64,000 nucleotides of DNA, from NCBI GenBank assembly GCA_048938105.1, contig JBHLMN010000004.1, forward strand, positions 1 to 64,000. The letters run 5' to 3'. This document shows, in pieces, positions 42,147 to 44,238 of this stretch (position 1 is the first letter of the stretch; every line of letters begins with the position of its first letter). The position numbers and the translations under genes were made by a program. Origin of the DNA: Promethearchaeota archaeon (lineage in GTDB: Archaea; Asgardarchaeota; Heimdallarchaeia; Hodarchaeales; Hodarchaeaceae). The notes beneath the pieces are model-generated. The model worked only from the letters and a program-made list of their open reading frames with translations. It was not told the origin of the DNA and searched no databases.

Positions 42147-42398
42147 TTAATTCTTTTTGATCAAGATGTGCCACATATTCTGTTCATTATGATCAATATT
42201 TTCAATTAGCTGCTGTTTAAGATTCGAGATCGCTATAAGGATTTCCTTTCGAGATATTTCCTCCTTTCTTGTGCCAACGAATTTGATGATTTGGCCTTTT
42301 ATGGCATTTTTTATTGCTCTACGAGCCTTAATTAATGGAATTGGACAAGTTAAGCCTGTTACATCAATAATAAAATCAGGTTCTTCTTCATTATTCAT
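42147..42398 (-). CDS. tusA: TusA-family sulfur carrier
   Basis: IDVTGLTCPIP motif, 83 aa. Confidence 0.85.
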   Translation of the reverse strand: MNNEEEPDFIIDVTGLTCPIPLIKARRAIKNAIKGQIIKFVGTRKEEISRKEILIAISNLKQQLIENIDHNEQNMWHILIKKN

Positions 42399-42407
42399 TG
42401 AATTCTC

Positions 42408-42815
42408 TTATCCCTCTAACTCTTCTATTGATCGTCCTTTCTTCTCAAGATAATTTATTATTGCTCTTTGAAGTGCATCCACAGCTAGATTCGAACAATG
42501 CATCTTTTGTTTTGGAAGGCCGCCTAAGTCATCAGCTACTTGTTTCTTTGTAATTCTATAAGCTTCTTTTAATGTTTTACCTTTGGCAATTTCTGTTGTG
42601 TGAGAACTTGTAGCTATAGCTGCGACACATCCGAAGGTTTTGACTTTAATATCTTCAATTACGTCAGTTTCATCATTAACCTTAATATAGATCCACATTA
42701 CATCTCCACATACGGGATTTCCTATTTTCCCAAGTCCGCTGGGGTTCTCAATTTCTCCCATGTTCTTAGGATTCATAAATAATTTCATTACTTCTTCAGA
42801 ATATATATGAGCCAT
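42408..42815 (-). CDS. iscU: Fe-S cluster scaffold IscU/NifU-N
   Basis: NPKNMG, GNPVCGD, FGCVAAIA, LGGLP..KMHCS; ATG at 42815 lies 1 nt after the iscS stop. Confidence 0.93.
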   Translation of the reverse strand: MAHIYSEEVMKLFMNPKNMGEIENPSGLGKIGNPVCGDVMWIYIKVNDETDVIEDIKVKTFGCVAAIATSSHTTEIAKGKTLKEAYRITKKQVADDLGGLPKQKMHCSNLAVDALQRAIINYLEKKGRSIEELEG

Positions 42816-42816
42816 A

Positions 42817-44070
42817 TTAATCATCCTCTGCATCATCCATGTTATGATGATGGTCTTCCTCAATAATCGCTCCTTGATCCTTCATTTCTTGCCATTCCCT
42901 CATAAATTCGGCATTCATAGGACTAATTGTTCTTAATCTTTCAACAACACTAGATAGATGTTCAACAAATTGATCTATCTCTTCTTTGGTGTTGTATTTA
43001 CTTAATCCTATTCGAACACTGCCATGACTAACTTCAGTTGGTAATCCAATCGCTGAAAGAACGTGGCTTGCTTTCAATCGTTTTGAAGAACATGCTGATC
43101 CTGTAGCAATCATAAAATCAAGCAGGTCTAAGTGTAACAAGATTGATTCTCCTTCAACATAACTAATTACAACTGAAAAGTGGTTTGGAAGTCGTTTTTC
43201 TGTGTCAATTGGACCAGTAATTTGGAAATCATGGATTTTTTTCTTAAAGGTCTGCCATAAATAATCTCTCAACTCTGTAACTCTTTCATTGATTTCTGGA
43301 GAATATATTTCAACAGCTTTTGCAAAACCTACAATGCCTGGAAGGTTTTCAGTTCCACCTCGTTTTTTATTTTCCTGGAGCCCACCGTCAATAAGCTTTT
43401 GAATCTTAATACCCTTCTTAATGTAAAGTGCTCCAACACCTTTAGGCCCATGGATTAAATGACTAGTTATTGTTGCCAAGTCAACGATTGAAGCATCAAA
43501 AGGAACCTTACAAAAACTATAAGAAGCTTCGACATGAAGCGGAACATTATGATTATGACAAATAGAGGCAATTTCCTTAATATCTTCGACAGTACCGATC
43601 TCAACATTGCCATGTGGAACTGAAACTAAAAGAGGGGGATCATTACTATCACTAAGAAGTTCTCGTAGATGATTCAGGTCAATAAATCCCTCTGAATCGA
43701 CTTTTATTAATTTAACGATAAAACCAAGCTTTTCTAATGCTGTTAAACTGTCCAACACTGTGGAATGAGATACACTTGAAGCAAGAAAGGTTCTCTTTTT
43801 TTTCTTAATATTTGCTAATGCTATACCTTTCACTGCAAAGTTGTTTGATTCTGCCTGACCTGATGTAAAAACAATTTCAGATGATTTTACATTAATTTTT
43901 GCGGCAATAATCTCTCGTGCTGAATCAAGAGCTTGTTTTGCTTCAACTCCGAAAGAATGTCCATAGTCTGAACTAGGTGGGCTTATTATCTCTGTGAAAT
44001 ATGGCATCATAGCCTCAATGGCCGCTGAATCGACCCTTGTTGAAGCATTGTTATCTAAATAGACCTTCAA
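42817..44070 (-). CDS. iscS: IscS/NifS-family cysteine desulfurase homolog lacking the PLP-binding lysine
   Basis: YLDNNAST, IVFTSG..ESNN, GPKGVG, RGGTEN, TGSACSS (Cys loop), SHVL; SHLIHGPK where SxHKxxGPK is canonical. Confidence 0.88.
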   Translation of the reverse strand: MKVYLDNNASTRVDSAAIEAMMPYFTEIISPPSSDYGHSFGVEAKQALDSAREIIAAKINVKSSEIVFTSGQAESNNFAVKGIALANIKKKKRTFLASSVSHSTVLDSLTALEKLGFIVKLIKVDSEGFIDLNHLRELLSDSNDPPLLVSVPHGNVEIGTVEDIKEIASICHNHNVPLHVEASYSFCKVPFDASIVDLATITSHLIHGPKGVGALYIKKGIKIQKLIDGGLQENKKRGGTENLPGIVGFAKAVEIYSPEINERVTELRDYLWQTFKKKIHDFQITGPIDTEKRLPNHFSVVISYVEGESILLHLDLLDFMIATGSACSSKRLKASHVLSAIGLPTEVSHGSVRIGLSKYNTKEEIDQFVEHLSSVVERLRTISPMNAEFMREWQEMKDQGAIIEEDHHHNMDDAEDD

Positions 44071-44238
44071 GAAGAAAACACCTTCAATAATTCAACGTTA
44101 TATTCTTTTTGATGCCAATAACAATAGTTTATTTTAACTATTATTATACGGAAAAGATAGTAAAAAGCATAATTTTTACTCAAAAGATCAATTGTTCAAA
44201 GCTCATTGGTTACCATTGATTTTATACAACTCGAAACC

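Follow-up and report, generated by a model that had tools for sequence, protein, structure and literature searches.

An iscS-iscU-tusA operon of a Hodarchaeales archaeon encodes an IscS-like protein without the Schiff-base lysine

We analysed a stretch of 64,000 nucleotides (positions 1 to 64,000 of contig JBHLMN010000004.1, assembly GCA_048938105.1; hereafter the window) from a Promethearchaeota archaeon of the Hodarchaeales. On the minus strand it carries a compact iscS-iscU-tusA operon, whose IscS-like protein has a leucine in place of the lysine that binds pyridoxal 5'-phosphate (PLP) in class I cysteine desulfurases. Judged by its active-site residues, this protein is most likely no longer a PLP-dependent cysteine desulfurase. 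By analogy with a known archaeal system, it probably acts as a desulfurase-dead partner of IscU. The genes and codons that carry this reading are the following.

42817-44070, minus strand: iscS-like gene with a MisS/NifS-like class I fold, without the PLP Schiff-base lysine (417 amino acids, TTG start)
42408-42815, minus strand: iscU, a single-domain NifU_N scaffold (135 amino acids, ATG start)
42147-42398, minus strand: tusA-like sulfur-carrier gene (83 amino acids, C-P-I-P; Cys18 codon at 42345-42347)
43456-43458, minus strand: TTA codon for Leu205 at the Schiff-base lysine position (Escherichia coli Lys206), from the sequence read and the alignment to PDB 9wer
43090-43092, minus strand: codon of Cys327, the persulfide/cluster-ligand cysteine of the mobile loop GSACSS (present in 66 of 66 clade members and 51 of 51 canonical relatives)

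Loss of the lysine and changes in the PLP pocket

On the minus strand, the leucine codon stands in the context act agt cat TTA atc cat ggg cct aaa ggt. Motifs were compared with those of PDB 9wer, which among cysteine desulfurases of solved structure is the nearest to this protein (E 1.8e-92).

Lysine motif: tAHKMYGPKG in 9wer, tSHLIHGPKG in the IscS-like protein
SGGTE motif: SGGTEAN in 9wer, SGQAESN in the IscS-like protein
EH motif: EIEHHS in 9wer, SVSHST in the IscS-like protein
DAxQ motif: hTDAAQS in 9wer, hVEASYS in the IscS-like protein

The first-pass annotation had proposed both the leucine at this codon and the further pocket changes (SGQA, SH and EASY); the codon and the alignment agree on the former, and the latter are all seen against 9wer.

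In class I desulfurases, the Schiff-base lysine forms the aldimine and also serves as the catalytic base. It is Lys206 in E. coli numbering, and the other PLP contacts are Thr76, His104, Asn155, Asp180, Gln183, Ser203, His205 and Thr243', with Thr76 binding the phosphate and Gln183 binding O3'. In the IscS-like protein, Lys206 is replaced by Leu205, Thr76 by Ala73, Gln183 by Tyr184 and Asp180 by Glu181. The S-x-H-K lysine of a class I desulfurase is therefore missing, and the set of PLP contacts is incomplete. Contacts to the PLP ring and phosphate are still present at His102, Asn155, Ser203, His204 and Thr240. A substitute lysine was sought among the 16 clade-specific conserved residues, and none of them is a lysine. 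The protein is predicted to be unable to form the internal aldimine, with the usual catalytic base gone. Furthermore, it scores below the NCBIfam equivalog cut-offs, both for its best NCBIfam match, NifS (TIGR03402, 391.3 versus 530.75 bits), and for the IscS models (318-323 versus 548-643 bits).

The fold and the loop cysteine are retained. The protein matches PF00266 (Aminotran_5) with an E value of 2.7e-56, covering the profile from 1 to 371 of 371, and its AlphaFold2 (AF2) model has the IscS fold (predicted local distance difference test score, pLDDT, 88.7; predicted template modelling score 0.88). In Foldseek, the best target-normalised match of this model is the IscS of Archaeoglobus fulgidus (PDB 4eb5; template modelling score, TM, 0.95; root-mean-square deviation 1.8 Å; 42% identity). 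TM values of 0.86-0.95 against NFS1, IscS and 4eb5 place it in aminotransferase class V of fold-type I. The catalytic cysteine of the mobile loop, SSGSAC[ST]S in class I desulfurases, is found here in GSACSS, and residues 326-331 of this loop have a low pLDDT, as expected of a flexible loop.

Another cysteine, Cys187 (codon 43510-43512, minus strand; SFCK), lies three residues past Tyr184, beside the former PLP pocket. It is clade-specific and present in 65 of 66 members. Canonical relatives have Thr or Gly at this position, and a cysteine is also found in P0061 and P0064, which belong to the 'Leu-only' group described below.

Conservation in the clade

The clade considered here has 66 members from Heimdall/Hodarchaeales, which are the proteins at 57-100% identity among the best 120 database homologues, together with genome-derived orthologues. 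At the lysine position 59 of them have Leu, six His and one Tyr. The pocket is highly conserved around it, with Ser101 and His102 in all 66 members, Asn155 and His204 in 65, Gln72 in 64 and Tyr or Phe at position 184 in 63. Among the 40 related genomes examined, 20 belong to the same genus, and 15 of these 20 have the iscS-like gene. All 13 complete loci of relatives show the order iscS-iscU-tusA. The pairwise ratio of non-synonymous to synonymous substitutions (dN/dS) of the iscS-like gene is 0.04-0.10, a range which indicates strong purifying selection.

The loss of a catalytic residue, and nothing else, would speak for a decaying gene or a sequencing artefact. This explanation is refuted, and we give it a negligible chance, because the 66 homologues share the Lys-less state, the relatives encode the leucine by synonymous codons (TTA, TTG, CTA or CTT), dN/dS is low, 13 relatives have an unbroken reading frame and the gene order is kept. 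The earlier view that TTA does not stem from a single-base error is upheld by the use of four synonymous codons, and the strain-specific decay that had been named as a possible refutation can be dismissed, since relatives share the state under low dN/dS.

Organisation of the operon

The three genes are tightly coupled, as first noted from the sequence. The ATG of iscU (42815) lies 1 nt past the iscS stop, and tusA starts 9 nt past the iscU stop. A longer reading frame for iscU, starting with TTG at 42863 in the list of open reading frames, finds no support in the N-termini of relatives, which read MAHIYSEEV. IscU matches PF01592 (NifU_N) with an E value of 1.6e-44, and its best NCBIfam match is NifU_clost (177.5 bits). 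Its ligand motifs GNPVCGD, TFGCVAA and KMHCSN are intact, with Cys36/Asp38, Cys62 and the His-Cys pair kept in all operon orthologues. TusA matches PF01206 with 41 bits (cut-off 28.6). It is the most divergent among the five TusA genes of the genome, and CP[IV]P is present in 13 of 13 operon orthologues. The initial description of an intact Cys loop, intact IscU cysteines and an intact TusA CPxP thus holds for this sequence and for the operon orthologues.

A likely promoter region lies 5' of iscS:

44071-44238, minus strand: A+T-rich spacer of 168 bp (sequence read), in which GGTG, resembling a ribosome-binding motif, lies 8-11 nt ahead of the TTG start

The upstream flank consists of an agmatinase-family gene and a gene resembling class II aminoacyl-tRNA synthetases (glycyl-tRNA synthetase-like); the downstream flank, on the other strand, of genes for a membrane protein and a phosphoribosyltransferase. 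The agmatinase gene is syntenic in the closest relatives only. Genes for chaperones (HscAB), an A-type carrier (IscA), a ferredoxin (Fdx) or IscR were absent among the open reading frames and Pfam matches within 3 kb of the operon. A NifS-like and IscU-like pair without HscAB, IscA, Fdx and IscR is what characterises a minimal ISC (MIS) system, and this is the arrangement found here.

Lys-less types across the Asgard archaea

Among 300 Asgard genomes surveyed, 253 had an IscS-like match, and 40 further loci were extracted. A Lys-less, presumably inactive IscS is common in this group and no oddity, with at least four sequence types.

Window type: SH[LH] motif, SGQAE and VSH; tusA downstream in 13 of 13 complete loci
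f11 type, related to the window type: DAH[HLRV]IHGPKG; tusA in 0 of 16 loci within 3.5 kb
T type: SHT, with IEDFP, STGSACFS and a long IscU-DUF59; tusA-dsrE upstream in 4 of 5 loci
ND type, that of A. fulgidus (4eb5): SSNDIYGPKG; upstream tusA(-dsrE) in 3 of 9 loci
f3 type, degenerate: His205 replaced; tusA in 0 of 5 loci

In an IQ-TREE phylogeny built with the trait columns removed, the window clade and the T clade each have a support of 100 and the ND clade one of 97, with T and ND placed elsewhere than the window clade. The latter is nested in a group of 24 rows (support 92). This group also includes the f11 type, the 'Leu-only' proteins P0061, P0064 and P0081, whose pocket is canonical apart from the Leu, and a small clade in which P0059 has Leu and P0056 and P0058 have Lys. 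The tree shows at least five changes of the lysine state, and a larger FastTree phylogeny at least eight. The relatives form a series, from Lys with a full pocket, through Leu only and Leu with a Gly-to-Gln change, to complete remodelling. It looks as if PLP contacts were shed stepwise once the lysine was gone.

A sister clade that contains the lysine (L040/P0062) has the same iscS-iscU-tusA order. The operon architecture therefore predates the loss of the lysine, and tusA linkage was rejected as a signature of this loss. In 18 other Lys-containing loci, no tusA was found nearby. The survey of Asgard homologues suggested in the first-pass annotation thus did not reveal a specific link between tusA and the Lys-less state.

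The C-terminal tail gave a mixed picture.

42820-42861, minus strand: acidic/His C-terminal tail EEDHHHNMDDAEDD, residues 404-417, predicted to be disordered

Residues 405-417 have a pLDDT below 50 in the AF2 model. An (E/D)n-HHH-acidic tail is kept across the window clade, and the HHH tail is found too in the f11 type and in the Lys-containing P0056 and P0058; as a mark of lysine loss it was rejected. More generally, acidic-HHH-acidic tails are widespread on Asgard IscS-like proteins with or without the lysine (P0056, P0058, L041-L057, L070, L072, L076). The tail had been singled out early on for its His/Asp-rich composition: its conservation in the clade stands, and a tie to the Lys-less state does not. 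It could bind metal.

The survey also revealed further variants. In five Heimdallarchaeia genomes (G023, G027, G031, G035 and G037; loci L033-L037), an IscS-like type has the His ahead of the lysine replaced (SSK, SSR, SQK, SNR), with SG changed to HG, FS or HS, a long IscU partner, and Arg at the lysine position in some. In two ND-type loci, L064 (5407-6753, plus strand) and L078, IscU and a thioredoxin-reductase-like flavoprotein domain (GGGPAG) are parts of a single protein. Such a fusion would put a possible reductant on the scaffold.

Other Fe-S and sulfur genes in the genome

A search for a canonical desulfurase or SufBC elsewhere in the genome, as the first-pass annotation had advised, was successful. 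The IscS-like protein is the sole class I (IscS/NifS-type) member, and contig C2 encodes a class II SufS-like enzyme, standing alone, that has the motifs HK, DAAQS and HC. Two further class V proteins are present. On contig C63 (85854-87122, plus strand; L002) lies a gene for a second protein of PLP fold that lacks the lysine, a class II (SufS/EF2568-like) paralogue with SHV. This paralogue reads CQSHVGFFAPPG where SufS has HK, and DATRTAG for DAAQS, and retains the cysteine motif RSGSLCSH.

Contig C14 (195938-197961, minus strand; L082:5939-7961) carries a SufC-SufB pair with a single SufB/D-type gene, an SMS-type minimal SUF system. No SufD, SufS or SufE was found near it, and a gene for an Arf-family small GTPase adjoins it in divergent orientation. 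An orphan second IscU (NifU_N, E 2e-45) lies on contig C41 (263043-263450, minus strand; L080:5043-5450), with no desulfurase gene alongside. It adjoins an Rpb6-like gene and is two genes from nadA, which encodes quinolinate synthase, a [4Fe-4S] enzyme.

Of the four additional TusA genes, two are part of a cluster on contig C50 (74661-77330; L084:2659-5349, minus strand), in which genes for a type III-like sulfide:quinone oxidoreductase (SQR) and an AsnC-type regulator come after tusA-dsrE2-dsrE-tusA. The SQR-like protein matches SQOR structures in the PDB with an E value of about 1e-42, and NCBIfam SQR_III with 310 bits, below the cut-off. The cluster is a candidate sulfide-to-persulfide route. 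As a dedicated sulfur source of the operon it was set aside and is a weak lead only, since the SQR-like gene occurs in 9/20 same-genus genomes and does not track with the operon.

The operon is absent from five of the 20 same-genus genomes, and three of these five have no IscU family gene at all. The other two (G001:C22:23608-25198 and G016:C5:33258-34848) have an adjacent pair of a class II SufS-like gene and a divergent IscU/SufU-like gene. The operon is also present in G009, a near-complete relative (one contig of 4.9 Mb, completeness 96%) in which no SufS-like gene was found.

Proposed function and alternatives

If it behaves like its counterpart in the (IscS-IscU)2 complex crystallised from A. 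fulgidus, the IscS-like protein would form a complex with IscU, in which Cys327 would supply the fourth ligand of the cluster, act as a thiol relay, or do both. Sulfur would not be made from cysteine by this protein; it would arrive as sulfide or as TusA persulfide, with TusA charged elsewhere, for example by the SufS-like enzyme or the tusA-dsrE2-SQR locus. We infer sulfide or TusA as the supply from related systems; in E. coli without iscS, sulfide feeds IscU-dependent assembly (PMC13015791). Several findings argue for a desulfurase-dead IscU partner: the replacement of the lysine and two more PLP contacts with no substitute lysine, the invariant Cys327 (66/66), the intact IscU ligands, the low dN/dS, the constant gene order (13/13), the TM of 0.95 to A. 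fulgidus IscS, and the presence of the operon in G009.

Other observations weigh against it. The five remaining PLP contacts may make non-covalent binding of PLP or pyridoxamine 5'-phosphate conceivable. TusA may be an old sulfur acceptor, not a donor, as tusA is found in the same operon in L040, where the lysine is intact. The SQR/DsrE2/TusA locus co-occurs only weakly with the operon among the same-genus genomes. The operon is dispensable, since five same-genus genomes have none. The first-pass interpretation is also tempered by the presence of a SufS-like enzyme, SufCB and a second IscU in the genome, with which the cell does not rely on the operon alone. Overall, we regard the evolutionary part of our interpretation as sound and the functional part as plausible.

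There is a smaller chance that the PLP pocket has been rebuilt, not merely decayed, and now holds a different ligand, or that Cys187 and Cys327 form a two-thiol relay of TusA sulfane sulfur (or sulfide) into IscU. The basis for this suggestion is the near invariance of Gln72, Ser101, Tyr/Phe184, Leu/His205 and Cys187 in a protein under strong purifying selection. If true, sulfur would enter Fe-S assembly by a PLP-independent mechanism in the archaea most closely related to eukaryotes.

A related explanation sees the main function in a persulfide relay from TusA, charged by another enzyme, through Cys327 to IscU. The direction would be the reverse of that in E. coli, and the remodelled pocket (Gln72, Ser101, Tyr184, Cys187, Leu205) would have taken on a new function in this transfer. 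Direct binding of TusA is known for the IscS of E. coli (PDB 3lvj), tusA is part of all 13 complete loci, other Lys-less IscS types have tusA-dsrE just upstream (L066, L072), and the pocket replacements, together with the clade-specific Cys187, are nearly invariant. However, the same operon is found in the sister clade that contains the lysine, the Lys-less f11 type lacks tusA within 3.5 kb in its 16 loci, the operon has no linked donor and the co-occurrence with SQR is poor, so that we consider a relay as the main function rather unlikely. More doubtful still is residual desulfurase activity, i.e. slow turnover of cysteine on non-covalently bound PLP with the help of another base. Five of about nine PLP contacts are kept, and one subclade has His at the lysine position, yet the lost lysine would be needed as the catalytic base as well as for the Schiff base, the Thr for the phosphate and the Gln for O3' are lost too, and no new conserved lysine has appeared. 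Furthermore, the A. fulgidus precedent is reported to be inactive (PMC7585200).

It is very improbable that the operon is a module for thiolation (of tRNA to 2-thiouridine, or of molybdopterin, via TusA) with IscS and IscU as adaptors, and not for general Fe-S assembly. Bacterial TusA does act in tRNA thiolation and molybdenum cofactor synthesis (PMC13066941), and SufCB and the second IscU provide the genome with other Fe-S machinery. Nevertheless, no MnmA, Ncs6, MoeB or similar gene adjoins the operon, and IscU with its full set of cluster ligands is the most conserved partner. We therefore favour the desulfurase-dead partner of IscU over these alternatives.

Significance

These findings bear on the source of sulfur for Fe-S clusters in anaerobic archaea. 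Reviews call MIS the least studied of five assembly systems. The Heimdall/Hodarchaeales type offers a compact three-protein unit of IscS-like protein, IscU and TusA, suited to direct expression and to assays of the sulfur source. Labels such as 'cysteine desulfurase family protein' on Lys-less genes overstate what these proteins can do. A literature search, which did not cover every key paper, found no published description of the Asgard Lys-less IscS clade.

Comparison with known systems

With the canonical class I desulfurases (E. coli IscS 1p3w, NFS1, NifS and the 9wer series), the IscS-like protein shares the fold, the dimer-type architecture, the Cys loop and the partnership with IscU; E. 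coli IscS also binds TusA, as seen in 3lvj. Unlike them, it has replaced the Schiff-base lysine, the phosphate Thr and the O3' Gln, and it stays below the cut-offs of the NCBIfam NifS and IscS models.

MIS (minimal ISC, Garcia et al.) is described in PMC13066941 and PMC12192291 as a two-gene unit of NifS-like and IscU-like genes with a cysteine desulfurase. The window operon resembles MIS in its two-gene core without accessory genes nearby. It differs from MIS in that desulfurase activity has most likely been lost, and in that tusA is part of the unit.

The nearest precedent is IscS2-IscU of A. fulgidus, with structures 4eb5, 4eb7 and 4hvk, and 4r5f for the D199K variant. Both systems have a class I fold without the Schiff-base lysine, a retained loop cysteine and an adjacent iscU. 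The A. fulgidus IscS is reported to be without the lysine and without desulfurase activity, and to contribute a cysteine as ligand of the [2Fe-2S] cluster on IscU (PMC7585200). However, the A. fulgidus motif is SSND, with Asn for His and Asp for Lys, and SGATE, EH and DA are retained there, whereas the window protein has SHL, SGQAE, SH and EASY. The window protein does not belong to the A. fulgidus lineage: 4eb5, with SSNDIYGPKG, sits in the ND clade, apart from the window clade. As both clades are separate and well supported, the lysine was lost independently in each, in line with the first proposal of a Leu variant distinct from the A. fulgidus Asp type. Furthermore, tusA lies downstream in the window operon, whereas Asgard ND-type loci have tusA-dsrE upstream where any carrier gene occurs.

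Methanosarcina acetivorans IscS1 is likewise Lys-less and was suggested to act like the A. fulgidus IscS (PMC7585200). IscS1-IscU1 (MA0808/MA0807, isc1 cluster) shares with the window operon the combination of a Lys-less IscS and an IscU in an anaerobic archaeon. It differs in its loop (STGSACFS) and its long (24 kDa) IscU. Its Asgard counterparts, with SHT, IEDFP, IscU-DUF59 and tusA-dsrE upstream (L066), form the separate T clade. Taken together, sequence and phylogeny identify the window operon as an independently derived variant of an established Lys-less IscS type, with a more thoroughly remodelled pocket and with tusA inside the operon.

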